This document shows, one piece after another, positions 28,152 through 48,136 of a DNA stretch of 64,000 nt. The notes under the pieces are model-generated. The model had not been told where the DNA came from, searched no databases, and worked only from the letters and a program-made list of their open reading frames with translations. The stretch lies in NCBI GenBank assembly GCA_964646765.1, contig CAZYIA010000002.1:99467-163466 (forward strand). Direction: 5' to 3'. How positions within the stretch are numbered: the first letter of the stretch is position 1; each line of letters starts with the position of its first letter. Both the position numbers and the translations under genes were made by a program. Source of the DNA: an uncultured Candidatus Saccharibacteria bacterium. GTDB lineage: Bacteria; Patescibacteriota; Minisyncoccia; Phycocordibacterales; UBA9973.

Positions 28152-29000
28152 ATGAAAACATACCGACCAACAACCAAATCACGCCGCAACATGTTGACTG
28201 TTGACTACTCTGACAAACTCACACGAGGGAAGCCAGAGAAGTCACTCACTGGTGGTTTTAAGCGCTCTATGGGCCGTAACGCACAGGGCCGCATTACTAC
28301 TCGCCACAAAGGCGGCGGTAACAAGCGTCTCTATCGCGACATCGACTTCGTATTAAACAAGCGCGATATTCCTGCGAAGATCGCTTCAGTTGAATACGAT
28401 CCAAACCGCACAGCATTCATTGCGCTTGCAGTGTACGCTGATGGTGAAAAGCGTTACGTACTTGCACCAAAAAGTTTAACCGCTGGAAGCACCTTCATCA
28501 TTTCTGAGAAGGCTCCAGTGAAGACTGGTAATCGTCTCCCGCTTAAGTTCATTCCTGTTGGTACCTTCGTGTACAACATTGAGCTCAAGCCAAACGGTGG
28601 TGCTAAGCTTGTTCGTTCAGCTGGTAACTTTGCTCAAGTTATTGCTAACGACGCAGGTTACACACTTCTTAAGATGCCTTCAACCGAAGTTCGCAAAGTT
28701 TCAGAAATGAGCTGGGCAAACGTTGGTGAAGTTTCTAACGAAGAAAACAAACTCCGAAACTTCGGTAAAGCAGGACGTTCACGATGGCGCGGTATTCGCC
28801 CAACCGTTCGTGGTTCTGCTATGAACCCAGTTGATCACCCATACGGTGGTGGTGAAGGAGCTCAGGGTCGCGGAACCCGTCGCCCAAAGACCCTCTGGGG
28901 TAAGGTGACTGGTGGACGCAAAACTCGTACACCAAAGAAATACTCAAACCAATTTGTGGTTACTCGCCGGGTTACCGGAAAGAAGCGCAAAGAGGCGTAA
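28152..29000 (+). CDS. rplB: 50S ribosomal protein L2
   Basis: GRNAQGRITTRHKGGGNKRLYRDIDF and the C-terminal GGGEGAQGRGTRRPKT are L2 hallmarks. Confidence 0.92.
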   Translation: MKTYRPTTKSRRNMLTVDYSDKLTRGKPEKSLTGGFKRSMGRNAQGRITTRHKGGGNKRLYRDIDFVLNKRDIPAKIASVEYDPNRTAFIALAVYADGEKRYVLAPKSLTAGSTFIISEKAPVKTGNRLPLKFIPVGTFVYNIELKPNGGAKLVRSAGNFAQVIANDAGYTLLKMPSTEVRKVSEMSWANVGEVSNEENKLRNFGKAGRSRWRGIRPTVRGSAMNPVDHPYGGGEGAQGRGTRRPKTLWGKVTGGRKTRTPKKYSNQFVVTRRVTGKKRKEA

Positions 29001-29715: not shown

Positions 29716-30108
29716 ATGGAATCACCAAAAGAAGAGGAAGCTTTTTCTGTAGTAAAGAGAGCACGAAGTTTTACCCATGCTTGGCGCGGATTATGCATTA
29801 TGGTTAAAACGCAGCATAATGCCTGGCTTCATGTATTAGCCGCACTGGTTGCAATTGCTCTTGGTGTATATTTTTCAATCTCTACAACTGAATGGTTTGC
29901 CCTCATTATTTCTATTGGTGTGGTATTAGTGGCTGAAGCGTTTAATACGGCAATTGAAGTTGATATCAATTTAACTTCACCGGAATATCACCCGTTTGCA
30001 CGCGACACCAAAGACATTGCCGCTGGGGCAGTGCTCATTTCAGCCCTCATGGCTCTCACTGTTGGCCTTATGATTTTTTTACCGAGAGTCCTTGAACTTC
30101 TTTCTTAA
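29716..30108 (+). CDS. dgkA: Diacylglycerol kinase / undecaprenol kinase family (DgkA)
   Basis: AWRGLCIMVKTQHNAWLHVLAALVAIALG and AEAFNTAIEVDINL carry the conserved E..NTAIE motif. Three transmembrane helices, about 130 aa. Confidence 0.7.
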   Translation: MESPKEEEAFSVVKRARSFTHAWRGLCIMVKTQHNAWLHVLAALVAIALGVYFSISTTEWFALIISIGVVLVAEAFNTAIEVDINLTSPEYHPFARDTKDIAAGAVLISALMALTVGLMIFLPRVLELLS

Positions 30109-32518
30109 AGAGAGTTCCTTTCTCTTCGAAATTTTTCCAAAGTGAATACGAAGGGGAAGCTGTTGAAAGGAGACAGATGCTTCCTTTTTTTGTGTGTTGG
30201 TAAGCAAAAGTCACGGCCGCTTTCATGCTTTTTGTTTTAAGAATGTTAAATCCTTTTTCGCTTTTTAAGATTCGCTTACCTGAATCAGGGAAGAGCACAA
30301 TATTTTGCACTTTATATTTTCGGAGTGTTTTTTCGAGCTCACGAAAATCATAGCCGCGGTCCGTACCGCCCAAGAAGATGGTATTAACGTTTTTCAGAGT
30401 CTTGATTGCTTCGCTAGTTGATTCTGGGGTAGTTGAAATAGCGTCGTCGTAGAATGTAACATCGCTATATGTGCCAACTTTCTCAAGTCGATGAGGAAGC
30501 GGCTTAAAGTTTTTGATCGCTTTTTTGATTGCTATGTCAGAAATACCAAAGTATTTTGCAATAGTAATTGCTGCTTTAATGTTACTCTCGTTATGTTTTC
30601 CTAAGAGTGGAATATCTTTTTCTCCAACTGGAATTTTTGCTGTAAATGGAGCAACAAAAGCCACGTCCCCTTTCTTCTGAAATTTGAATATGTTTTTCTT
30701 AGCCGCGTAGTATGCTTCCACTGATCCGTGATAGTTCATGTGTTCAGGGAACAAGTTAAGAAGTAGGGCAACGTTTGGTGATTGCTCAATGTCCTCAAGC
30801 ATGTAACTTGAAAGTTCAAGGACGAAAATCTCTTTCTGATTGCGCTTAGTAAGCACTGCTTCGAGCATTGGATTTCCAATATTCCCAAGCAGCCGCACTT
30901 TTTTCCCGCCCGCTTTGAGCATTTCATATACTAAGCTGGTAGTCGTGCTTTTACCTTTTGTTCCCGTAATGCCAACCGTTACGTTTTTATTTTCAGAGAA
31001 GAAAAGATTAGTTGCTGTAGTATAGGGAATAGTAATAAGGCGCTTTGGAATACCTGGAGTTTTAATGGCAAGGTCATAAGCGCTCTGTTTCTTTAAATAG
31101 TTTTTATCGCGGGTTTCGTCTAAAATGCCAACTTTCAGGTTTGGGTATTTTTGCTTGAGATACTTTTCAGTTACTTTTCCTTCTCGGCCGTAACCAACAA
31201 TTGCCACGTTTTTGATACTCAAGAATTTAAATGGAGTCGGAAGCGTTGGAGCGTGAGCAGTTTTAAAAACTTTCTCTACTAGAGCCTTCGGATTTTTAAC
31301 TTTTGATAAAAATGTTTTTACTACAACGGAGTCTTTCCAATTCTTTGAAGCTAAATAAAGCGCAGCCTGGGATTCTTCAAATGTACCTACACAATCAAAC
31401 GGCTTCATGGTGCCAAAGCCTAATATGTCTTTATAGAGTGGCAAAAGCGATTCATCCGCTAACAGATTCTTGCCGAACATGTCGATGACTTCTTGTTTTG
31501 GAAGCGTGGCGGCAAGCAGCAAAAAGACGAAGGCACATTTTGGGCACTCTCCGCACCACAGCGTATTTGGGCGATCTTTGTGAACTTTGAAGTTTCGGTT
31601 GCAGCTTGAGAAAAAAGGAAAGTATTTTGGATACTTGGCAAACATTTTCACAATTCGGATTTCATAAAATTGGCGAAGAACTGAAGTATAGATGATGTCA
31701 GGTGTAATAAATTTTCGAGTGTACTCTTGAAGTAGTGCTTCAAATTCTGCTGATTTGCTCCATTGGTGATTAATTGTTTCTCCTTTATAGGTTAAGTTCC
31801 CGAAGTTACTCGAGTGTTCATTTGCGACAGCGATATATTTAAAGCCGTAGAGTGCTGAAGTGAGAAGACCAAGAAAAGCAAACACGGCGGAAATTGGCAC
31901 GTGACCGTTATATGCACCATCGTGATTTTGAAAAATCTTCGGATCAAGTCTTCGGTGAATTTTTAGCGCTGGATAGCCAATAGTTTCAATAATGTGTTCT
32001 GAAATAAGATCAGCTCGCTCGGTTTCAACTAAGAATGATGTAACGGGAAAATCACGCAACAGTTCGGCTGCAACGATTGAATCTTTTCCGCCACCAATAC
32101 CAAGTAAGATGTCATTGCCGGTTGGAATTCGTACGGAAGTAGTGCCAGTTTTTGTAAAAGGGAATTTGGCGATATTTTTTGGATTAATATTATTTCGGTA
32201 TGAAAATTCACCGAGACCTTTTCGATATACTGTATTCCAAAATTCCGCCTGCTCTTTAGAGAGAGAGTAGGGAACCGTAATTTTCTTCGGGCAATACAGT
32301 TTGTAGTAACTGATACCTAAAATAAGGTGAAGCGGCTCTAAAAAGTGGCCTAGCTCTTCCTTCGAAAGTTTCCGCGGAGCTTTTGGCAAGGTAATGGTTT
32401 CGGTAAAAATAAGTGGTTCTCGATTTGAAAAAGCGATTTCGTAAGAAAACTTGATTTCTAGGCTGTTTTTAGGGAATTCGTAGCCGAGAAAGTTAAAACT
32501 GTTCGCGCGCGGAGTCAT
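30068..32518 (-). CDS. murD: Fusion protein: N-terminal PP-loop (adenine-nucleotide alpha-hydrolase-like) domain with a CxxC motif, joined to a complete UDP-N-acetylmuramoyl-L-alanine–D/L-glutamate ligase (MurD-type)
   Basis: The N-terminal half has LLGIGGGKDSIVAAELL (SGGxDS-type PP-loop) and WCGECPKCAFVFLL. The C-terminal half has VAIVGYGREG, the Mur ligase P-loop GITGTKGKSTTTSLV, the central domain, and the Mur ligase C-terminal domain (HNESNIKAAITIA; FYDDAISTTPEST). Confidence 0.65.
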   Translation of the reverse strand: MTPRANSFNFLGYEFPKNSLEIKFSYEIAFSNREPLIFTETITLPKAPRKLSKEELGHFLEPLHLILGISYYKLYCPKKITVPYSLSKEQAEFWNTVYRKGLGEFSYRNNINPKNIAKFPFTKTGTTSVRIPTGNDILLGIGGGKDSIVAAELLRDFPVTSFLVETERADLISEHIIETIGYPALKIHRRLDPKIFQNHDGAYNGHVPISAVFAFLGLLTSALYGFKYIAVANEHSSNFGNLTYKGETINHQWSKSAEFEALLQEYTRKFITPDIIYTSVLRQFYEIRIVKMFAKYPKYFPFFSSCNRNFKVHKDRPNTLWCGECPKCAFVFLLLAATLPKQEVIDMFGKNLLADESLLPLYKDILGFGTMKPFDCVGTFEESQAALYLASKNWKDSVVVKTFLSKVKNPKALVEKVFKTAHAPTLPTPFKFLSIKNVAIVGYGREGKVTEKYLKQKYPNLKVGILDETRDKNYLKKQSAYDLAIKTPGIPKRLITIPYTTATNLFFSENKNVTVGITGTKGKSTTTSLVYEMLKAGGKKVRLLGNIGNPMLEAVLTKRNQKEIFVLELSSYMLEDIEQSPNVALLLNLFPEHMNYHGSVEAYYAAKKNIFKFQKKGDVAFVAPFTAKIPVGEKDIPLLGKHNESNIKAAITIAKYFGISDIAIKKAIKNFKPLPHRLEKVGTYSDVTFYDDAISTTPESTSEAIKTLKNVNTIFLGGTDRGYDFRELEKTLRKYKVQNIVLFPDSGKRILKSEKGFNILKTKSMKAAVTFAYQHTKKGSICLLSTASPSYSLWKNFEEKGTLFKKEVQGLSVKKS

Positions 32519-32581: not shown

Positions 32582-33475
32582 ATGGCACTAGGTTTCCGTG
32601 AAAAACTAAAAGCACGTCAGGAAGAAATCCGAGGCGTACTTTGTGTTGGACTCGACCCACTCCCAGAAAAATTGCCGTCCTCTCTCTCAACCGGCTCACA
32701 TCCTTCACAAACTGCTCACGATATTACGGAGTGGATGAAGGCTATTGTGGACGCTACCGCTCCATACGCCACCATGTTTAAGCCACAGAAAGCTCACTGG
32801 GAGGCATTTGTTGGTGGCGACTATGCGCTTCAAGAAGTGATTACCTACATTCATAAACGCTATCCAGGTATTGTGGTTTTTGAAGACTGTAAACGTGGAG
32901 ATATTGGTCGCACTCAAGAACGATATCGTATGAGTGTCTTTGAATTTGACGGGGCTGATGGCGCTAACTTTTCTCCATACATGGGCCGCGAGTGTATGGA
33001 ATATTTCGTTGATCAAAATCATAAAGAGCGCTCAATTGTTGGACTCTGTTATACGAGTAATCCTTCAGCGCGCGAGATCCAAAATCAAAAATTAGAAAGC
33101 GGAGAATATCTCTGGGAATTTATTGCTAAGCGTACACTTGCGTGGGCAGACGAACTCGGAGTAACCGAAAATGCTGGTCTTGTGATGGCTGCTGCATATG
33201 AAGAAGAAAAGGGATCCGGTAAGATCAAAACTGATCATCTCACTCGTTGTCGCCAAATTGTTGGCGACAAATTCTGGTTCTTAATTCCAGGTGTTGGAAC
33301 CCAAGGTGGTTTTGCTTATGAAACTGTTCAAGCTTCGTTTGCTGGTTTCGGTTCCATTGCGGTGAATTCTTCAAGCGATATCAACTTTGCTTCAAGTGGT
33401 CCTGACTTTGCCGACGCTGCTGCTCAAAAAGCAAAGGAGCTCCATCTAGAGCTCCAGGCTGCATTACCAAACTAG
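32582..33475 (+). CDS. pyrF: Orotidine 5'-phosphate decarboxylase, type 2
   Basis: LCVGLDP near the N-terminus, a length of about 295 aa and KRGDIGRT are typical of the long-form PyrF. Confidence 0.7.
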   Translation: MALGFREKLKARQEEIRGVLCVGLDPLPEKLPSSLSTGSHPSQTAHDITEWMKAIVDATAPYATMFKPQKAHWEAFVGGDYALQEVITYIHKRYPGIVVFEDCKRGDIGRTQERYRMSVFEFDGADGANFSPYMGRECMEYFVDQNHKERSIVGLCYTSNPSAREIQNQKLESGEYLWEFIAKRTLAWADELGVTENAGLVMAAAYEEEKGSGKIKTDHLTRCRQIVGDKFWFLIPGVGTQGGFAYETVQASFAGFGSIAVNSSSDINFASSGPDFADAAAQKAKELHLELQAALPN

Positions 33476-34248
33476 TTTTTTGCCATTGCTTCGCGAAGCG
33501 GCGTCCAGTTATCCTTTGGTTTCCAAATGATATTTCCGGCTTCGATATCGGCTTGTACGGCCGTGTCGTCTTGGCGAAATTCAGGAATAGGGAAGGCAAG
33601 AAGAGCAATAACCTTAAGGGTTATATCGTTTTCACTGTAGATATCGGTCACTTTCGAAGAACGATTCAAAATATCAGTTACGGCAACCGGCACGCCACCT
33701 TTTTCGGTAATGGCAGCAATCGATTTTCCAATAGTTGAGAAGTTAAAAGAAACATCTTCAGAAATAATTACTTTGTCGCCTGGTTCAATGCGATGACGGA
33801 AGAATCCCATCTTCGTTTCTTCGCGCTCTCCGATAGCTGCGGCCTTGGTTACTTTCTTTTCAATGATGGCAAAACGCGTGCCGAGTTCAGCAGCTAAAAA
33901 ATTTCCAATGCCAATGCCGCCCATTTGTGGTCCTGCCACAACATACTGTGCGGCGTGTGTTTCAATATCTGGAATTGCCTCCCGAACTTTTTGAGCAATC
34001 AGTTTTCCGATATATGAAAGAATAGTTGGATACTGTTCAATTTGCGCGCAGTTGATGTAGGTTTCACCAACCCACTGTTTCATTTCACCGTTATCTTCAT
34101 ATGTTCCGGCATAGCCAACTAATGGACCAAGACGCTTTCCGCTCACATCTTTCGGCACGGTGTACATTGCGCCACACGCTTTCAAAATTGCCACCGGGTC
34201 GCCTGGGTTTTTTTCAATGATGGTTTGAAGTTCGTTGGGCGAGAGCAT
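33472..34248 (-). CDS. pyrE: Phosphoribosyltransferase-domain protein, probably orotate phosphoribosyltransferase
   Basis: The PRPP-binding motif is KVIISEDVSFNFSTIGKSI (acidic-hydrophobic followed by a T/G-rich loop). It is convergent with and overlaps pyrF by 4 nt. Confidence 0.55.
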   Translation of the reverse strand: MLSPNELQTIIEKNPGDPVAILKACGAMYTVPKDVSGKRLGPLVGYAGTYEDNGEMKQWVGETYINCAQIEQYPTILSYIGKLIAQKVREAIPDIETHAAQYVVAGPQMGGIGIGNFLAAELGTRFAIIEKKVTKAAAIGEREETKMGFFRHRIEPGDKVIISEDVSFNFSTIGKSIAAITEKGGVPVAVTDILNRSSKVTDIYSENDITLKVIALLAFPIPEFRQDDTAVQADIEAGNIIWKPKDNWTPLREAMAKN

Positions 34249-34373: not shown

Positions 34374-34715
34374 ATGACACGATCACTCAAAAAAGGACCA
34401 TATATTGACCCACGCCTCTTGAAAAAGATTGAGGGCAAAGAACCACAAAAGACTGGGGTTATTAAAACCTGGTCACGCGCCTGCCAGATTTCTCCAGAAA
34501 TGATTGGATTCATTTTTGGCGTGCACAATGGTAAGCAACACATCGAAGTTCTTGTTTCTGAAGACATGGTTGGACATCGCTTAGGTGAATTTTCTCCAAC
34601 TCGTAAGTTCAGCAAGCACGGTGGTAAGATGCAAAAGGAACTTGAAGCTAAGAAGAAGGAAGCTGAACTCGCTGCTGCACAGGCTGCTAAGGCTGCTCCT
34701 GCCGATAAGAAATAA
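34374..34715 (+). CDS. rpsS: 30S ribosomal protein S19 (with a Lys/Ala/Glu-rich C-terminal extension)
   Basis: [19 protein letters not shown]...[29 protein letters not shown] matches S19. Confidence 0.9.
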
Positions 34716-37392: not shown

Positions 37393-37932
37393 ATGATTTC
37401 AGTTAAAGAAAAAGCAGAAAAAGCATTTGAGACGATGAAAGGTTCGTTCGGCTACAAAAACAAAATGGCCGCACCAAAACTCAAGAAAGTAGTTGTTTCA
37501 GTTGGTACTGGTAGCGCAATGAAGCGCGACAATAAGCGCAACGATTTCGTTCTCGGACGCCTCGCAAACATTACTGGCCAGAAGCCAGCAACTCGCCAGG
37601 CTAAGAAGTCAGTGGCATCATTCAAAATTCGTCAAGGTGATCCAATCGGTGTTGCGGTTACTCTCCGTGGTGCTCGCATGTACGCGTTCCTCGACAAGCT
37701 CTTCAATATTGCACTTCCTCGAACCAAAGACTTCCGTGGAATTGATGCAAAAGTTGTTGATGATATCGGAAACGTAACGCTTCCAATTAAAGAGCACACA
37801 ATCTTCCCAGAAACTGCTGATGAAGAATTGAAAGACGTGTTCTCTCTCGGAATCACTATCGTTACTTCTGCAAAGGATAAAAAAGAAGCAACTAAATTCT
37901 TCGAACTCATTGGCGTTCCGTTCAAAAAATAA
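37393..37932 (+). CDS. rplE: 50S ribosomal protein L5
   Basis: The protein has PKLKKVVVSVGTGSAMKRDNKR and RGARMYAFLDKLFNIALPRTKDFRG. The start was moved to MISVKEKAEK. Confidence 0.88.
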   Translation: MISVKEKAEKAFETMKGSFGYKNKMAAPKLKKVVVSVGTGSAMKRDNKRNDFVLGRLANITGQKPATRQAKKSVASFKIRQGDPIGVAVTLRGARMYAFLDKLFNIALPRTKDFRGIDAKVVDDIGNVTLPIKEHTIFPETADEELKDVFSLGITIVTSAKDKKEATKFFELIGVPFKK

Positions 37933-37937
37933 ATTGC

Positions 37938-37975
37938 AAAACAAAAACACCCCATACGGGGTGTTTTTGTTTTCT
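37938..37975 (+). terminator. Rho-independent terminator after rplE
   Basis: The hairpin aaacaccccatacggggtgttt is followed by TTGTTTTC. Confidence 0.6.
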
Positions 37976-38062
37976 ATTGACAAAAAGAGGAGTAATGAGG
38001 TAATTTAAAGGTCTCATTCTTAAATAATTAAATTTTTTCTAAACCAGTCAAACCAAGTTATT

Positions 38063-38542
38063 ATGAACACTGCAGCTCCAAAAATTTTGGGCGAGGACTT
38101 TAACCTTGCCGATGTAACCAATTTCTTCACTACTAACAATATGGCTATCGGCAATGATATCCGTACATTGTTAGGGAATATCGCTCGTTCCCCGGAGATT
38201 TATACCAAACCGGACACTGACGCCTTCAATCATTTCCTCTCTAAACCCGTTCAATCGCATGAGCAGGTATTGGGAGAACTTACTGATTGCGAAAAGGTGT
38301 TAGCTATCGGTTCTGTATATGGAACCAGTAACATCGAGCCGCTGCGTAAATTTTTGCGCAAAAATGATTCCAGCCACCCTGACTATTTTGAAAAGGAAAA
38401 AGAGTGTCTGCTGATTAAGCCCCGCCAGGAGCTTTTGAAAGGACACCTGATTACCTCAATTGCTGACCGGTTTAAAGGTCAGATTCAGGGACGCCCGATT
38501 GAAATCCGTGAAGGCTGGCAAGTTGTTGTGCTGCCTCATTAA
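38063..38542 (+). CDS. Hypothetical protein (159 aa) inserted in the spc operon
   Basis: The ORF is clean and followed by a 13-bp-stem hairpin (agccccgcaatac…gtatttgcggggct). I noticed more CTG (Leu) and CCG (Pro) codons than in neighbouring genes. Confidence 0.4.
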   Translation: MNTAAPKILGEDFNLADVTNFFTTNNMAIGNDIRTLLGNIARSPEIYTKPDTDAFNHFLSKPVQSHEQVLGELTDCEKVLAIGSVYGTSNIEPLRKFLRKNDSSHPDYFEKEKECLLIKPRQELLKGHLITSIADRFKGQIQGRPIEIREGWQVVVLPH

Positions 38543-38635
38543 CAAACGGTTACCGTTAAAAAAACAAGCCCCGCAATACCTTAAAAGTATTTGCGGGGCT
38601 AGTTTATTTATGGGGAGACATGCTATTGTTCCTCC

Positions 38636-39244
38636 ATGCAGAAAAAGGAACGTCTTGGTTTTAATATTGTTTTGCTTGGGCAAATTGCCGCTGGAAAAGA
38701 AACACAGGCGGCACTTCTTATGGAAAAATACGCTCTCCATCCTGTTGAATCAGGAAAGTACTGGCGTACGATGATGAAGGCTAAAACTAAAGAAGGGGAA
38801 TGGCTCCGTCGTACAACCGCCAAAGGACTGCCGGCTCCAGTATCACTGATGAAAAAATTCCTTGTTGAACGTATTAACAAAAAACCAAAAAATAAAGACC
38901 TTCTCTTTATTGGTAACCCACGATTGAAGCCGGAAGCCCAGCTTTTAAAAAAGTTGTTAGCAGCAAAGAAACAAGATTTCTTTGCGCTCTATATCTCACT
39001 TCCTGATAAGGAAATATATAATCGATCGCTCAAGCGAAAAGAAGGTGCCGGTAAGGCAATTTACAAAGTGCTTGATGAAAAGCACCTTATTGCTGCGCGT
39101 ATTAAATGGCATAAAGACCAGGTTGGTAAGACCGTGGCCTACTTTGATTCTCTCGGTAAATTAAAAAAAATTAACGGCAAACAAAGCATTGAAAAGGTGG
39201 CTGCTGATATTGAAAAAGCTATCGCTCAAGCTCGAAAAGCCTAA
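38636..39244 (+). CDS. Adenylate-kinase-like nucleoside-monophosphate kinase paralog with a variant P-loop (GKETQ instead of GKGTQ)
   Basis: The protein has FNIVLLGQIAAGKETQAALLMEKY, and its length and LID-like region match the adk family. The canonical adk is at 43325..43921. Confidence 0.5.
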   Translation: MQKKERLGFNIVLLGQIAAGKETQAALLMEKYALHPVESGKYWRTMMKAKTKEGEWLRRTTAKGLPAPVSLMKKFLVERINKKPKNKDLLFIGNPRLKPEAQLLKKLLAAKKQDFFALYISLPDKEIYNRSLKRKEGAGKAIYKVLDEKHLIAARIKWHKDQVGKTVAYFDSLGKLKKINGKQSIEKVAADIEKAIAQARKA

Positions 39245-39245
39245 A

Positions 39246-39276
39246 TTGACTTTTCGCCATTTCCTGATACTATAAT
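39246..39276 (+). promoter_or_regulatory. Candidate promoter (TTGACT, about 19 nt, perfect TATAAT) for rpsN and the distal spc genes
   Basis: aattgacttttcgccatttcctgatactataatgcc. A 7-bp-stem hairpin with a large loop (tcctgcc…ggcaggg followed by a T-rich tract) lies between it and rpsN. Confidence 0.4.
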
Positions 39277-39412
39277 GCCTAGGCACCTGTTACGGTTCCC
39301 AGTCCGTTTTTCTCCTTTAGATTACGCCTCGTTCCTGCCGAGCGCTGTAGCATAAAGAATAAAAACGCGATACTGGATCCTGGCAGGGGGCTTTTATTAA
39401 GTATTTTCTAGT

Positions 39413-39598
39413 ATGGCAAAAACATCAACGTACGTACGTTCTCAAAAAAAGCCCAAGTTCTCATCTCGGGCTAAGAACCGCTGCTTTCGCTGCGGTCGTG
39501 GTCGTGGTTTTATGCGTGATTTCGGACTCTGTCGTATTTGCTTCCGCGAGTTAGCAAACGAAGGAATGATTCCGGGCGTCCGCAAATCATCTTGGTAG
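39413..39598 (+). CDS. rpsN: 30S ribosomal protein S14, zinc-binding type Z (61 aa)
   Basis: [61 protein letters not shown] carries the Z-type C..C...C..C signature. Confidence 0.9.
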
Positions 39599-39617: not shown

Positions 39618-40004
39618 ATGGATCCAATTTCCAACATGGCAATCGCCTTAAAAAACGCTTCTCTTGCTTCACACGAAAGCATCACTGTGCCTTTTTCAAA
39701 GGTAAAGCTTGCTCTCGCAGAAGCTCTCGAGAAAGCTGGTTTCGTTAAGGCCGTTGCAAAAAAAACAAAGAAGAACCTCCAGGTTCTCGAAGTTACCCTC
39801 GCTTATACGAATGGCAAGCCAAAGATTAGTGGCGTTGAGCGTGTTTCAAAACCGTCTCGCCGTCTCTATATCAATACTCGGGCAATGAAAAAGCCGCTCG
39901 GTGGCGTTGGTACTGAATTTATTTCCACCCCGAAAGGGATTTTGACTAGTCGCGAGGCTCACCTCGAACACGTCGGCGGCGAAGTTATGCTTAAAGTTTG
40001 GTAA
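39618..40004 (+). CDS. rpsH: 30S ribosomal protein S8
   Basis: DPISNMAIALKNASLASHESITVPFSKVKLALAEALEKAGFV matches S8. Confidence 0.9.
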   Translation: MDPISNMAIALKNASLASHESITVPFSKVKLALAEALEKAGFVKAVAKKTKKNLQVLEVTLAYTNGKPKISGVERVSKPSRRLYINTRAMKKPLGGVGTEFISTPKGILTSREAHLEHVGGEVMLKVW

Positions 40005-40900: not shown

Positions 40901-41548
40901 ATGGATACTCCTACAACAACAAATGCTGCTTCGGCTACCGGAGCACAGAAGCCTCGACCAGCAAACGATCGTCGCCGTCCAGGTGGTCCTCGTGGCCAAG
41001 GTGGTCCACGCCGTGGTGGTGATCGAGGTGGTAATCGCCCAAACTTTGAGCGCCCTCGACCAGAATTTGAACAAAAAATGCTCGCTGTTCGCCGCGTAAC
41101 CCGTGTGGTTGCTGGTGGACGCCGCATGTCATTTGCTATCGCACTCGCGATTGGTGACAAAAAAGGTTCAATCGGTCTCGGTACTGGTAAAGCTGGTGAT
41201 ACTTCACTCGCTATCAACAAAGCAGTTCGTGATGCAAAGAAAAATCTCATTCGCATCAAGACCACTAAGAATTTTTCAATTCCTCAGGTTGTGTCTGCTA
41301 AGTATGGCAGTGCTGAAGTAATGATTATGCCTAACCGTGGTAAAGGTCTTGTGGCTGGTTCTGCAGTTCGTGATCTTCTCTCTCTCGCTGGTATTAAAGA
41401 CACTACTTCAAAAGTGCTCACTGGTTCGAAAAACAAGTTAAACATTGCTCGCGCAACTATGCTCGCGCTCTCTCGCATTGCGGACAAGAAAACTTCTTTC
41501 CCGATGACTGAACAGAAAGCGTTCGTTGCTGATGCTCCAGCAGAGTAA
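40901..41548 (+). CDS. rpsE: 30S ribosomal protein S5 (with an Arg/Gly-rich N-terminal extension)
   Basis: RRVTRVVAGGRRMSFAIALAIGDKKGSIGLGTGKAGDTSLAINKAVRDAKKNLIRI matches the S5 dsRBD and C-terminal domain. Confidence 0.9.
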   Translation: MDTPTTTNAASATGAQKPRPANDRRRPGGPRGQGGPRRGGDRGGNRPNFERPRPEFEQKMLAVRRVTRVVAGGRRMSFAIALAIGDKKGSIGLGTGKAGDTSLAINKAVRDAKKNLIRIKTTKNFSIPQVVSAKYGSAEVMIMPNRGKGLVAGSAVRDLLSLAGIKDTTSKVLTGSKNKLNIARATMLALSRIADKKTSFPMTEQKAFVADAPAE

Positions 41549-41553
41549 ACTTT

Positions 41554-41985
41554 ATGCAAACTCACTCACTTAAACGAAATCATCCAAACAAGGACGCAAA
41601 GCGCGTTGGTCGCGGTGGCCGATTTGGAAAGACTTCTGGCCGCGGTACAAAAGGTCAGAACGCTCGCGCAGGTCGCAAGAAGTGGCCTGAACTCCGCACC
41701 ATCATTAAGCGTTTACCAAAACTTCGTGGTTACCGTTTCAATTCAATCCACGACAAGCCTCTTACCGTAAATCTTATTGCTCTCGAAGCTGCTTTCAAGG
41801 CAGGAGAAACGGTTACTCCGGTAACACTTCGTGAACGTGGTGTTATTAAGAACACCAAGAGCACTGGCGCACAGGTTAAAATTCTTGCGACTGGTGACAT
41901 TACCAAAGCACTCACCGTTTCAGGCTGCACGCTTTCTGAGACTGCCAAGGAGAAAATTACGAAAGCTGGTGGTACTGTTAAGTAA
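41554..41985 (+). CDS. rplO: 50S ribosomal protein L15
   Basis: VGRGGRFGKTSGRGTKGQNARAGR matches the L15 N-terminus. It follows rpsE directly, with no rpmD (L30) between them. Confidence 0.9.
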   Translation: MQTHSLKRNHPNKDAKRVGRGGRFGKTSGRGTKGQNARAGRKKWPELRTIIKRLPKLRGYRFNSIHDKPLTVNLIALEAAFKAGETVTPVTLRERGVIKNTKSTGAQVKILATGDITKALTVSGCTLSETAKEKITKAGGTVK

Positions 41986-43923: not shown

Positions 43924-44604
43924 ATGAATAATCGCACCATCATCTCTCTCGGCGGTTCACTCGTAGTACCAAACGGTATCGATACCGAATTTTTGTCTAC
44001 GTTTGTTTCGCTTATAAAAAAAGAAGCAGAGAATGGTAAAGAATTTTCGATTGTGGTTGGTGGTGGCAAAGTGGCGCGTGATTACCGCGACGCACTTACT
44101 GCTCTTGGAGTTTCAGATAACGATATCCTTGATTGGCAGGGGATTTACGCCACACGATTGAATGCCGAGCTCGTTCGCCTCGCATTTGGTGAAACTGCTG
44201 AACCAGAAATTTTTCTTGAACCAGCGCAAGCTAGTTTTAAAACTAAGCGTATTCTCATTGGCGGCGGCTGGAAGCCAGGTCACTCAAGTGATGGTGCTGC
44301 TGTTGGCCTTGCAGAAGCACTTAAAGCGGGAACACTCATTAATCTTTCAAATATCGACTACGTCTACACTGATGACCCTCGCAAAAATCCTGAAGCCACA
44401 CCAATCGAAAAAATTAGTTGGGCAGAGTTTCGAAAGTTACTACCAACAGAGTGGAATCCTGGTGTGAATGCACCATTTGATCCAGTTGCCGCACAGATGG
44501 CCGAAAAAATTGGTCTTACTGTTGTGGTGATGAATGGCAAAAATTTGAATAATCTTAAAGCGTACCTTTCTGGCGAGCAGTTTATTGGTACGGTCATTTC
44601 TTAG
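43924..44604 (+). CDS. pyrH: Uridylate (UMP) kinase, short archaeal/CPR-type amino-acid-kinase fold
   Basis: IISLGGSLVVPNG...IVVGGGKVARDY...ILIGGGWKPGHSSDGAAV is the amino-acid-kinase family pattern. The length is about 225 aa. Confidence 0.65.
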   Translation: MNNRTIISLGGSLVVPNGIDTEFLSTFVSLIKKEAENGKEFSIVVGGGKVARDYRDALTALGVSDNDILDWQGIYATRLNAELVRLAFGETAEPEIFLEPAQASFKTKRILIGGGWKPGHSSDGAAVGLAEALKAGTLINLSNIDYVYTDDPRKNPEATPIEKISWAEFRKLLPTEWNPGVNAPFDPVAAQMAEKIGLTVVVMNGKNLNNLKAYLSGEQFIGTVIS

Positions 44605-45397: not shown

Positions 45398-48136
45398 ATG
45401 GAAAGTTTCCCGCAAGCGTCCAAATTTAAAACGGCTGAAGAAGAGCTCGCTTTTTTGCGTGCTCATATTGCTGAACGCGAACAAAAATCTGCTGAGATGG
45501 GCACAGGCGGTGGCAGTGAAAAAGCAGCGGAAGCCACACTTGAAGCATACAAGCGTGCTGACGCTGCAGAAGTGCTTCATGAAGCTGCGAAATTGCCGGA
45601 GCATCAGGTTGAACAATTAGTTCTTAATTTAAAACCTGAAACACACGATCGCCAGATGGAAGAGCTTCTCGGGATTCTTCTTGAGAATGGTATTAAGAAC
45701 GCCCTTGATGTAGTTGAGGCTATGCAGAACCCGCACTTAACCGATGATTTTCATCGTTTTCTAGTGCAGTACCTTGTAAGTACCAACGGTATTCCAGGAC
45801 TAAAAGAATCGCATCCACTTTGGAAAGGAGTGAATATGAAGCTTTTTGAAATTACCCTTCCTGAACAAGGAAAAGATGAAGCAAAGGGCTACAAAGAATT
45901 TATTGCCGCTATGGAGCAATTTTACGCTGGCATGCTCTCCGCTGGCGGAACTGACAATCCAAACCGTAAATACTACACCCTTGAAATCGCGGTTAATAAT
46001 AAGTCACCGCAAATCATGTTCTATGCTGCGGTGCCGAATGAAAAAGTAGATCTCTTTGAAAAACAGGTTCTTGGTTTCTACGAAGATGCAAAAGTAAAAG
46101 AAATTTCTGACGACTACAATATTTTTACTGAAGGTGGTGAAGCCGCTGGTTCATATGCCAAGCTTGGGGAAGTAGAAGTATTTCCACTGAAAATGCATGA
46201 TGAACTCGAGCACGACCCGATGAAGGCTATCATCAATGCCTTTTCAAAATTGAAGGATGAAGGTGAAGGTGCTGCTATTCAGTTTATGGTAGTTCCTGCG
46301 GGGGAACGACTAGTAAAGCAATTTTCTAATGTCCTCTGGCGAGTGAAAGAGGAAAAACTTCGAGCTCGAGAAGCTCTTAAGCTTTCAAACTCAATTGGCC
46401 GGGAAGTATTTCACCTGGCCAAACAGTTTGTAAAACCAACTTCCAAAGAGCGTCTTGAACAAAAAGGCCGCGCAAATGAAAAAGATATTGAAAATATCAC
46501 TAATAAGTTAAAAAGCACTGTTGTTGATGTTGCTGTTCGAGTAGTTGCTTCAGCTGCTACTCGTGAACGAGCGAAAGACATTTTGCGTGAAATTGAATCA
46601 GCATTCTATCAATTCTCAAATCCAACTGCGAACCATATTGAATGGGAACGTGTTGAAGGGCGTCGGGCAAGCGAACTCTTCCAAGAATTTTCATATCGTA
46701 TGTTCAATGAGGAAGAGCGCATGTCGCTTAATCTTCGCGAACTTGCCTCACTTTTTCATTTCCCAATTGGTATTTCTTCTTCACCTGAACTCAAGCAAGC
46801 TAAGGCTGCAACTGCTCCAGTGCCACTGGAAATGAAGGCTGACGCCGGCGGTATTTTCTTAGGTACCAATGAGCATCGTGGTGGATCGAAGAAAGTATTT
46901 ATGGGCAAAGAAGATCGCCGTCGTCACTTCTATGCTATTGGTCAAACCGGTACTGGTAAGACAACCATTTTGAAGCACATGATCATTCAAGATATTCAGA
47001 ATGGTGACGGAGTGTGTTTCATCGATCCGCATGGTTCTGATCTCCAGGACATTATTGCCAATATTCCAAAAGAGCGTATCGACGATGTTATTTACTTTGA
47101 TCCGGCGTACATTGCTCGGCCAATGGGGCTAAACATGTTGGAATACGATCCACGATACCCAGAACAAAAAACCTTCGTGGTGAACGAGCTTTTGGCTATT
47201 TTTAATAAGCTCTTCGATATGAAAACGGCCGGTGGCCCAGCGTTTGAACAGTACTTCCGTAACTCGTCGCTTTTGGTTATGGAAGATCCAGCATCTGGTT
47301 CAACGCTCCTGGAAATCGGTCGCGTGCTCGCGGATAAAGAATTCCGCGATCTCAAACTTTCTCGTTGTAAAAACCCAATCATCAAACAATTTTGGGAAAA
47401 TGCTGAAAAAACATCGGGCGAACAATCATTGGCAAACTTCGTACCATACGTTACCAACAAGTTCGATGTGTTCGTTTCAAACGACATCATGCGTCCGGTT
47501 ATTGCTCAGGAAAAGTCCGTATTCAATTTCCGTGAGATTATGGATAATCGCAAGATCCTTCTCGTGAATCTTTCGAAAGGCCGTTTGGGTGATATTAACT
47601 CAAACCTTATTGGTCTCATTTTGGTTGGAAAGCTTACGATGGCGGCGCTTTCTCGTGTCGATATTTTAGGCAAACAAGAAGTGCACGATTTTTACCTCTA
47701 CATCGACGAATTTCAGAACGTCACAACCGACTCCATCGCAACAATCCTTTCCGAAGCCCGCAAATACCGCCTGTGTTTGAATATCGCCCATCAATATATC
47801 GAACAGCTTGATGAGAAGATCAAAAATGCCGTCTTTGGAAACGTGGGATCGATGGCCATCCACCGTGTTTCGGTGGAGAATGCGGAGGTGTTCGCTAAAC
47901 AGCTTGAACCGACATTCACTGCAGAAGATATCATTAAACTCGAGAACCTTAATTGTTACATAAAGATGCTGGTGAACGGCATGCCGGTAAAACCATTCAA
48001 CTCGAAAACACCGTTTCCGCCGAAGGGTAATCCAGAGCTTGCTGAAAAGATTAAAGAGCTTTCGTACCTCAAATTCGGGCGAGATCGGGAAGAAGTGGAA
48101 AGTGAAATCATGGCCCGCTACGTTCAGCAGTTCTAA
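45398..48136 (+). CDS. Large soluble P-loop ATPase of the VirD4/TraG/TrwB coupling-protein superfamily (ATPase domain in the C-terminal half; about 450-aa N-terminal domain of unknown function, no transmembrane segments)
   Basis: Walker A is HFYAIGQTGTGKTT, followed by CFIDPHGSD. Walker B is LYIDEFQN. The region SEARKYRLCLNIAHQYIEQL resembles the TraG-D_C motif. Confidence 0.6.
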   Translation: MESFPQASKFKTAEEELAFLRAHIAEREQKSAEMGTGGGSEKAAEATLEAYKRADAAEVLHEAAKLPEHQVEQLVLNLKPETHDRQMEELLGILLENGIKNALDVVEAMQNPHLTDDFHRFLVQYLVSTNGIPGLKESHPLWKGVNMKLFEITLPEQGKDEAKGYKEFIAAMEQFYAGMLSAGGTDNPNRKYYTLEIAVNNKSPQIMFYAAVPNEKVDLFEKQVLGFYEDAKVKEISDDYNIFTEGGEAAGSYAKLGEVEVFPLKMHDELEHDPMKAIINAFSKLKDEGEGAAIQFMVVPAGERLVKQFSNVLWRVKEEKLRAREALKLSNSIGREVFHLAKQFVKPTSKERLEQKGRANEKDIENITNKLKSTVVDVAVRVVASAATRERAKDILREIESAFYQFSNPTANHIEWERVEGRRASELFQEFSYRMFNEEERMSLNLRELASLFHFPIGISSSPELKQAKAATAPVPLEMKADAGGIFLGTNEHRGGSKKVFMGKEDRRRHFYAIGQTGTGKTTILKHMIIQDIQNGDGVCFIDPHGSDLQDIIANIPKERIDDVIYFDPAYIARPMGLNMLEYDPRYPEQKTFVVNELLAIFNKLFDMKTAGGPAFEQYFRNSSLLVMEDPASGSTLLEIGRVLADKEFRDLKLSRCKNPIIKQFWENAEKTSGEQSLANFVPYVTNKFDVFVSNDIMRPVIAQEKSVFNFREIMDNRKILLVNLSKGRLGDINSNLIGLILVGKLTMAALSRVDILGKQEVHDFYLYIDEFQNVTTDSIATILSEARKYRLCLNIAHQYIEQLDEKIKNAVFGNVGSMAIHRVSVENAEVFAKQLEPTFTAEDIIKLENLNCYIKMLVNGMPVKPFNSKTPFPPKGNPELAEKIKELSYLKFGRDREEVESEIMARYVQQF

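Follow-up and report, generated by a model that had tools for sequence, protein, structure and literature searches.

Organization of the Locus between rplE and rpsN

The stretch of DNA analyzed here, referred to as the window, comprises 64,000 nucleotides of contig CAZYIA010000002.1 from an uncultured Candidatus Saccharibacteria bacterium and carries the ribosomal-protein cluster of a Patescibacteria-type genome, which runs from rpsS to rplE and then from rpsN to rplO, followed by secY, adk, an archaeal-type pyrH and map. Between rplE and rpsN, two genes were found that encode a hypothetical protein of 159 amino acids (aa) and a nucleoside monophosphate (NMP) kinase paralog of the adenylate kinase fold, here named adkL, and rpsN itself is preceded by a structured leader RNA. 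The most interesting content of this region is the leader, which is uncatalogued and has a core similar to the binding site of ribosomal protein S8, together with a rearrangement of the active site that is found throughout the adkL family. The features are listed below by their coordinates in the window.

37393..37932, + strand: rplE (L5), which closes the upstream transcription unit of ribosomal-protein genes; open reading frame (ORF), 70-75% identity to L5 in related loci
37938..37973, no strand assigned: intrinsic-terminator-like hairpin after rplE; perfect 16-bp stem, 4-nt loop, A-tract and U-tract arms
37977..38006, + strand: promoter-like element of the 159-aa protein gene; TTGACA at 37977-37982, 18 nt, TAATTT at 38001-38006 (weak -10)
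38063..38542, + strand: 159-aa protein gene; four-member family, no known domain
38567..38611, + strand: hairpin between the 159-aa protein gene and adkL; 13 bp with one bulged U, 7-nt loop, then an interrupted U-rich stretch
38636..39244, + strand: adkL, adenylate-kinase-fold NMP kinase paralog of 202 aa; Pfam ADK 65.5 bits, P-loop GxIxxGK[D/E]TQ
39246..39276, + strand: promoter of the rpsN unit; TTGACT at 39246-39251, 13 nt, extended -10 TGaTACTAT at 39265-39273, overlapped by TATAAT at 39271-39276
39276..39397, + strand: structured leader RNA of rpsN; covariance model, covariation and minimum free energy (MFE) fold
39413..39598, + strand: rpsN, with which the downstream unit begins, encoding S14 (zinc-ribbon type, 61 aa); 80-93% identity in related loci
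39618..40004, + strand: rpsH (S8, proposed ligand of the leader); ORF, Pfam Ribosomal_S8 on the identical gene in related locus L025
43325..43921, + strand: canonical adk, directly after secY; GKGTQ, Asp84 and Gln92 equivalents kept

The terminator after rplE, the 159-aa ORF with the 13-bp hairpin that closes it, the adk-like gene with the sequence GKETQ, the second and canonical adk downstream, and the structured leader before rpsN had all been named in an original prediction, and all of them were recovered, the 13-bp hairpin with one bulged U and an interrupted U-tract. The hairpin after rplE (-23 kcal/mol, z -6.0) is GC-rich and followed directly by a U-run, as expected of an intrinsic terminator, and is potentially bidirectional judging from its A-tract and U-tract arms; analogous hairpins were found at the equivalent position in the related loci L108, L109, and L115. 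The second hairpin, in which 38567-38579 pair with 38587-38600 (-23.3 kcal/mol, z -4.1), is followed by an interrupted U-run only and is probably a leaky terminator between the 159-aa protein gene and adkL. In L108 and L109, a hairpin and U-tract likewise follow the homologue of the 159-aa protein gene. The promoter-like element of this gene was recognized by reading the sequence and scores under the threshold of the promoter scan; its equivalents in L108 and L109, TTGACA/TTGACT with TAGAGT/TAAAGT, lie at the same place. The identical 159-aa protein and the same arrangement were present in several independent assemblies from other samples, and the arrangement is therefore not an assembly artefact.

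Promoter and Leader RNA of rpsN

Relatives of the locus were compared in a survey of 80 metagenomic loci retrieved by an S14 search. From a MAFFT alignment of 47 leader sequences, RNAalifold predicted two stacked helices upstream of rpsN, of which the basal helix was extended by us across a 2-nt bulge. On this alignment 94.4% of the cells were paired and compensatory changes were found in 18 of 24 pairs; none of 500 shuffles reached any of the measures, and slid controls showed 39-56% pairing. A covariance model of the leader matched immediately before rpsN and on its strand in about 70 of the roughly 80 loci, including loci outside the training set, and the leader was found whatever lay further upstream of rpsN. 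In the 64-kb window the model gave a single match, at 39276-39397 (50.2 bits, E 6e-10). The core of the leader consists of AGUC at 39301-39304 opposite GAUACUGG at 39369-39376, with a bulged UA that was reproduced by the MFE fold of 39296-39384, and besides the core there is an invariant UUUCUCC (39309-39315) opposite AAGAAUAAAAA as well as a variable apical hairpin.

Just upstream, TTGACn-N15-19-TAnnnT was present in 64 of the 80 loci, with the consensus TTGACT-N14-TGcTAGTAT, which includes an extended -10. The perfect TATAAT to which a promoter-like element had originally been assigned does occur in the window at 39271-39276, but it needs a 19-nt spacer, and the -10 that is homologous to those of the relatives is TGaTACTAT at 39265-39273, with TATAAT overlapping it 3 nt downstream.

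Searches with Rfam 15 showed no hit in the 64 kb at the gathering threshold and none to 39245-39412 at E 10, and a permissive Rfam search returned terminator-like noise only, on the two hairpins, with nothing on the leader. Likewise, no such rpsN leader was mentioned in the literature searched, including the 20 ribosomal leader candidates of PMC7247131. The leader resembles the ribosomal-protein leaders detected by comparative genomics (Eckert and Weinberg, 2020; PMC7247131) in being a conserved structured 5′ untranslated region (UTR) with covariation; that paper makes no mention of an S14 or S8 leader, nor of Parcubacteria or Patescibacteria.

A role of UUUCUCC as an element similar to an anti-Shine-Dalgarno sequence was considered and set aside, as rpsN and the neighbouring genes have no Shine-Dalgarno sequence. 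The rpsN start codon also lies between the arms of an imperfect 14-nt inverted repeat (39388-39401/39441-39454, 86% complementary). As the 5′ arm of this repeat shares nucleotides with the 3′ base of the leader, pairing of the repeat would be in competition with that of the leader.

Similarity of the Leader Core to Helix 21 of 16S rRNA

The leader was compared with helix 21 of the E. coli 16S ribosomal RNA (rRNA), in which the S8 core is made up of G597-C643 with U641, the invariant A642 and an A595-(A596-U644) triple (PMC4176348). Among 69 distinct leaders, the C-G and the U-A pair of the basal helix were each present in 69, and the bulged nucleotides of the 3′ strand were U in 68 and A in 69. 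The pair equivalent to 597-643 was A-U in 67 leaders and G-C in two, while the 596-644 equivalent showed covariation (A-U in 39, G-C in 27); an unpaired 5′ nucleotide corresponding to 595 is possible in many leaders and not evident in all. In the window, AGUC and GAUACUGG were identical to E. coli 16S positions 596-599 and 639-646, which belong to the primary S8 site of helix 21, and they are oriented towards the hairpin loop in the same way. An equivalent of the helix 21 core (597-599/639-643, on the same strands relative to the loop) was found in the leaders. A variable single-base bulge is located one pair from the core. Behind the leader, rpsH was the second gene in the window and in the relatives.

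An autoregulatory S8 site in the spc operon messenger RNA (mRNA) of E. coli was reportedly described by Cerretti in 1988 and by Merianos in 2004. According to Fu (2013; PMC3616713), S8 is the repressor of the E. coli spc operon, the mRNA site overlaps the rplE start codon, its extra bulged bases are thought to lower the affinity compared to rRNA, and a site of the E. coli type is reported from Gammaproteobacteria only. Both the leader and the E. coli site are mRNA elements in an operon that encodes S8, with an invariant bulged A, a U-A pair and a purine-pyrimidine (R-Y) pair, and the leader likewise has an extra single-base bulge next to the core, as described there for E. coli. The Patescibacteria leader differs in that it forms the 5′ UTR of rpsN behind its own promoter and contains the extra UUUCUCC/GAAAAA module.

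On the basis of the identity of the core to helix 21, the role of S8 as spc repressor in E. coli and the position of rpsH as second gene, the leader is proposed to be S8-responsive: most likely, it would bind free S8 by mimicking 16S helix 21 and thereby repress the rpsN-rpsH unit.

The adkL Family and Its Active Site

The adkL product matched Pfam ADK (PF00406) with 65.5 bits (cut-off 26.8) over profile positions 1-149 of 151. It fell below every NCBIfam adk cut-off (best 88.8 vs. 187; TIGR01351 78.5 vs. 168), a test that is weak in this lineage, since the canonical adk of the window was also under the TIGR01351 cut-off (93.1 vs. 168). A search with adkL returned 623 homologues, and the family, which is large, old and conserved, was found throughout Paceibacteria with 53-74% identity. 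The best 120 homologues showed 62-74% identity, and the named ones among them belong to Nomurabacteria, Paceibacteria or the ‘Patescibacteria group’; homologues are currently annotated as ‘adenylate kinase’ or ‘nucleoside monophosphate kinase’.

The P-loop of adkL reads GQIAAGKETQ (codons of GKETQ at 38693-38707) and thus lacks the GxPGxGKGTQ of adenylate kinase proper; the motif G-x-I-[AT]-[SA]-G-K-[DE]-T-Q was present in all 120 closest homologues. An alignment of 120 family members with two reference sequences, E. coli Adk and the window's own canonical adk (residues in E. coli numbering), showed that the equivalents of Lys13, Arg36, Arg88, Arg119, Arg123, and Arg167 are kept, Arg123 being Arg in 112 of 120, and that the Arg156 equivalent is Lys. 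The equivalent of Asp84 (DGFPR) was Leu, Ile or Val in 120 of 120 members and that of Gln92 was Glu, also in 120 of 120. In the NMP-binding domain, the 56-61 loop has become G-x-P-A-P, and Glu38 and Arg58-Arg59-Thr60 are new invariants. By comparison, the canonical adk of the window retains GKGTQ, Asp84, and Gln92. As GK[D/E]TQ is found in all 120 members and Asp84 has been lost alongside, the change from Gly to an acidic residue in the P-loop is, by this alignment, a family signature and not a lesion.

With respect to known enzymes, adkL is most similar to Adk (PF00406; short-LID type, PDB 8pvw and 3cm0), with which it shares the fold family over its full length, the short LID and the Lys and Arg residues listed above; the best PDB matches were adenylate kinases. 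It differs from Adk by GxIxxGK[D/E]TQ in place of GxPGxGKGTQ, the hydrophobic Asp84 site, Glu92, Lys156 and the remodelled NMP-binding loop, and in that it coexists with a canonical adk. The eukaryotic-type uridine/cytidine monophosphate (UMP/CMP) kinases also have the adenylate kinase fold, a short LID and a non-adenine acceptor, and adkL matched them as well (TIGR01359 71 bits; 1tev E 2e-10), but more weakly than Adk and far under the TIGR01359 cut-off of 207.6 bits; besides, UMP/CMP kinases typically keep GKGT. Literature searches for the GKDT/GKET motif gave unrelated peptides only, and those on Patescibacteria NMP kinases gave nothing relevant.

In most P-loop NTPases, the Ser/Thr position of Walker A binds Mg, and in E. 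coli Adk the residue that reads adenine is Gln92. Most likely, adkL would be an active ATP:NMP phosphotransferase in which binding of ATP-Mg is retained, and the Mg-positioning carboxylate appears to have shifted from Asp84 into Walker A, to the place of Ser/Thr (GK[D/E]T). Replacement of Gln92 by Glu suggests a non-adenine acceptor, such as guanosine monophosphate (GMP) or CMP. Since this replacement at the base-recognition position is family-wide, it is plausible that adkL is an NMP kinase specialized for a different nucleotide, which had been one of the two explanations offered originally.

Genomic Contexts of adkL

Three contexts of adkL were found. In 15 of 24 species-representative genomes it is located between secY and adk, on the opposite strand and head-to-head with the canonical adk, and two more such cases were the P0007 contig and L113. 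In seven genomes, and in P0010 as one more, adkL lies between a divergent tsaD and Mur ligase genes, and L114 shows a variant of this context with adkL next to murB. Between rplE and rpsN, on the same strand as these genes, it was found in the window, L112, and L115. In a neighbour-joining tree, the copies of the secY-adk context were basal, those of the window, L112, L115, and L114 were placed together in 83 of 100 resamplings, and the tree follows genomic context. The simplest reading is that adkL descended vertically with rare relocations and that its position between rplE and rpsN is common to a small clade, in which it would have moved into this place from the ancestral one, on the opposite strand, between secY and adk.

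The 159-aa Protein Gene

A word-indexed search with the 159-aa protein returned only the protein itself, and a full HMMER search against 1.8 billion representatives gave three homologues of 144-152 aa with 31-33% identity (E 1e-9 to 1e-10). Twenty columns are invariant across the four proteins, a profile search for additional family members found none, and no domain match was obtained for the 159-aa protein in Pfam, NCBIfam or PHROGs. Two of the three homologues have a usable context, and both are located between rplE and rpsN (L108 and L109), in loci whose S14 is 93% identical to that of the window, the highest value among the retrieved loci. Both are bracketed in the same way as the gene in the window, by a hairpin after rplE, a TTGACA/TTGACT box, a hairpin of their own and the rpsN promoter.

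An AlphaFold2 model built from the alignment of four sequences had a predicted local distance difference test score (pLDDT) of 77.9 and a predicted template modelling score (pTM) of 0.70, and a single-sequence model was poor (pLDDT 46). The predicted fold consists mainly of helices, among them a long helical hairpin, and includes a small sheet of three strands; a structural-neighbour search with the model gave no informative fold match. Taken together, the gene is most likely real, rare and fast-evolving, and has been in this position since before the closest relatives diverged. Our best guess is that its product is a dispensable, lineage-specific soluble protein, the position of which reflects history and not a role in the ribosome.

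The fourth member of the family (P0124, on a JGI contig) is flanked by an opposite-strand gene of 202 aa, which is like adkL by length alone. A 150-aa ORF adjoining adkL in L115 was considered as a further member and rejected, as it is unrelated and resembles a membrane protein.

Variability of the rplE-rpsN Slot in Relatives

The distance between rplE and rpsN ranged from 72 to 2847 bp among the related loci. Where both genes are present, the gap is only about 110-290 bp in about half of the loci, and gaps of more than 400 bp were found in 26 loci, 25 of which contain ORFs of at least 60 aa; in several loci, rplE was not found within 1-3.5 kb upstream of rpsN. The cargo of the slot in relatives included pilin-like proteins, small membrane proteins, a methyltransferase, a reverse transcriptase and an IS200-like transposase. 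In close relatives, enzymes of nucleotide metabolism were also present, namely cytidylate-kinase-like, cytidine/deoxycytidine monophosphate (dCMP) deaminase and deoxycytidine triphosphate (dCTP)-deaminase-like proteins (L029 819-1400; L038 2836-3306; L058 1723-2157). A recurrent pair is formed by a gene for a small membrane protein (about 110-128 aa) and, after it, one for a pilin-like protein (about 170-210 aa) that carries the N-terminal methylation motif GFTLIELLVV; pilin-like ORFs were found in 13 slot loci and small membrane ORFs in 11, and both together in, e.g., L036, L046, L077, L083, L086, L089, L090, L091, and L100.

The slot resembles the hot spots for insertion of accessory genes between core genes in that its flanks, rplE and the rpsN leader, are conserved and its cargo is variable and includes genes of mobile elements. 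It differs from them in that it is located inside a universally conserved ribosomal-protein cluster and that much of its cargo is housekeeping (NMP kinases, deaminases, pilins). The junction between rplE and rpsN is probably a natural boundary between transcription units and a variable insertion site: nothing must be co-transcribed across it, so the slot tolerates inserted genes and varies between relatives.

Codon Usage and Marks of Mobility

For each of 62 ORFs of the window, the choice of synonymous codons was compared with that in the remaining ones. The 159-aa protein gene deviated with z 3.3 and ranked 9 of 62, with eight genes deviating more, and adkL was typical of the contig (z -0.9). 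An excess of CTG and CCG codons had been noticed by eye in the 159-aa protein gene: for CTG this was borne out (5 of 16 Leu codons vs. 6.3% in the contig, binomial p 0.002), whereas CCG (4 of 9 Pro codons vs. 23%, p 0.13) did not stand out, nor was the gene as a whole an outlier. The GC profile showed no island at the two genes, and no flanking direct repeats, tRNA genes, integrases or transposase were found around them, the repeat search giving short chance matches only. Against phages and plasmids, the 159-aa protein gene had no match and adkL had only distant adenylate-kinase-like matches of 24-29% identity.

Other Features of the Window

At 40901-41985, rpmD (L30) is missing between rpsE and rplO, and the S5 of the window is extended at its N-terminus by about 60 aa, among which Arg, Gly, and Pro are abundant; presumably, both fit genomes of the Candidate Phyla Radiation. 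The UMP kinase directly after adk (43924-44604) is of the archaeal type (TIGR02076 196 bits, above cut-off, vs. 57 bits for bacterial pyrH). After map, a 912-aa protein (45398-48136) has weak signatures of a TrwB/TraG-type coupling-protein ATPase, and a DUF8128/TrwB-like gene is also located near map on the P0007 contig. A second and larger islet, from the end of rplB at 29000 to the start of rpsS at 34374, splits the S10 cluster. It contains an ORF without Pfam match and genes for a diacylglycerol kinase (29716-30108) and an orotidine monophosphate decarboxylase (32582-33475), and on the minus strand those for an 816-aa Mur-ligase-like protein (30068-32518) and a phosphoribosyltransferase-like protein (33472-34248); again, nucleotide-metabolism genes are found within a ribosomal cluster.

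Discussion

Several observations weigh against the proposed functions. The most conserved module of the leader, UUUCUCC/GAAAAA with its invariant C-A oppositions, lies outside the S8-like core, and no counterpart of it was identified in helix 21. The leader match ends at 39397, 16 nt before the rpsN ATG at 39413, and the core of the relatives is 35-100 nt upstream; as there is no overlap with the start codon, it is not evident that the leader would simply occlude the start site, as happens at E. coli rplE. For adkL, the carboxylate swap is an idea that rests on one evolutionary event in the alignment, and the acceptor nucleotide was guessed from a single residue. Together with the U-rich run that follows the base of the structure in some loci in a terminator-like manner, the observations on the leader would fit a real leader that does not bind S8 and has another ligand (S14, L6, L18, S5 or L15), or is a protein-independent attenuator, a processing site or a stability element. 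We find this rather doubtful, because the helix 21 core is matched, with its strands oriented alike, by the invariant C-G and U-A pairs, the bulged U and A and the R-Y pair that covaries, S8 is the known repressor of the E. coli spc operon (PMC3616713), and rpsH is the second gene of the unit. Binding of S8 is thus retained as the most likely function of the leader. For adkL, replacement of Gln92 in 120 of 120 members, the remodelled 56-61 loop and the new invariants Glu38 and Arg58-Arg59-Thr60 make it unlikely that the gene encodes an additional isozyme of adenylate kinase that likewise uses adenosine monophosphate (AMP) and ATP and has a P-loop change that is neutral or kinetic. It is true that its best Pfam, NCBIfam, and PDB matches are adenylate kinases, that the catalytic Lys and Arg residues are kept and that it often adjoins adk, suggesting an origin by duplication, but redundant isozymes would rarely be kept this long in small genomes. 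A ribosome-assembly ATPase or chaperone, like Fap7/AK6 of archaea and eukaryotes, or an inactive pseudo-enzyme is still less probable. Two of the three contexts of adkL are ribosomal-protein clusters, the Walker A is unusual and Asp84 is lost; however, location is weak evidence, as the canonical adk shares this cluster in most bacteria for historical reasons, and the third context, between tsaD and mur genes, is unrelated to ribosomes. Moreover, the equivalents of the NMP-site residues Arg36 and Arg88 are invariant and would be needless in a pure ATPase, and the P-loop of Fap7, GxxGxGK[ST]T, appears unlike the adkL motifs. An active NMP kinase with a different acceptor is therefore preferred for adkL.

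Concerning the origin of the two genes, the other explanation offered by the original prediction had been recent acquisition as a cassette, here taken as horizontal transfer of a mobile cassette or genomic islet into the spc operon; average codon statistics and conservation of the insertion in related genomes had been named there as findings that would speak against it. Exactly this was found for adkL, and largely for the 159-aa protein gene. The moderately atypical codons of the latter (z 3.3; CTG 31% of Leu codons vs. 6%) and the transposase and reverse transcriptase in the slot of some relatives could be taken as signs of such a transfer, but eight genes of the contig are more deviant, adkL is typical, neither repeats, tRNA genes and integrases nor phage or plasmid affinity were found, homologues of both genes are in the same slot of diverged relatives, and the adkL tree tracks genomic context. 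Recent acquisition is thus very unlikely. An equally slight chance is given to the 159-aa ORF being a chance ORF of the spacer: the lack of domain matches in Pfam, NCBIfam, and PHROGs and the pLDDT of 46 of the single-sequence model would be expected of such an ORF, but not three homologues that are close to it in length, with E values of 1e-9 to 1e-10 and 20 invariant columns, a confident AlphaFold2 model from a small alignment, promoter-like and terminator elements around the gene that are kept in relatives, or the identical protein in several independent assemblies. For a real gene, its conserved position may still be history only.

The explanation that we consider probable as a whole combines a permissive operon boundary, two vertically inherited genes and, alongside them, an autoregulatory leader of the S8 type. 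In this model, upstream transcription would end at the rplE hairpin, and rpsN, rpsH, rplF and the following genes would be transcribed from a strong extended -10 promoter of their own, behind which lies the conserved 5′ leader. The 159-aa protein gene would stand alone, with a promoter-like element and a hairpin of its own. No adkL promoter was found between this hairpin and the adkL start codon, which is a weak point of the model; given also the poor U-run of the hairpin, adkL is probably expressed by read-through. There is no terminator after adkL, so its transcripts would continue into the rpsN leader, as deduced from the sequence. That the leader is an independently evolved S8-responsive regulator, i.e., a convergent mimic of helix 21, and at the same time adkL is a new class of adenylate-kinase-fold kinase with a carboxylate in Walker A and an acceptor other than AMP, is proposed tentatively, as something possible rather than probable.

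The rpsN leader is a testable candidate for control of the spc cluster outside Gammaproteobacteria, in a phylum without genetics. If S8 is its ligand, the leader would be another case of convergent rRNA mimicry, and the leader and the split operon would show how autoregulation of ribosomal proteins is rebuilt in ultra-small genomes. The adkL family, in which the Walker-A Ser/Thr position is acidic and Asp84 is missing, is a natural experiment on the positioning of Mg in P-loop kinases. If the proposed acceptor is right, adkL could act in these salvage-dependent bacteria as a GMP or CMP kinase, either the missing one or an alternative, and its annotation as adenylate or NMP kinase may place the enzyme at the wrong step of nucleotide salvage in Patescibacteria. 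At the level of gene order, even the most conserved gene cluster of bacteria holds slots at internal promoter boundaries in which insertions are tolerated.

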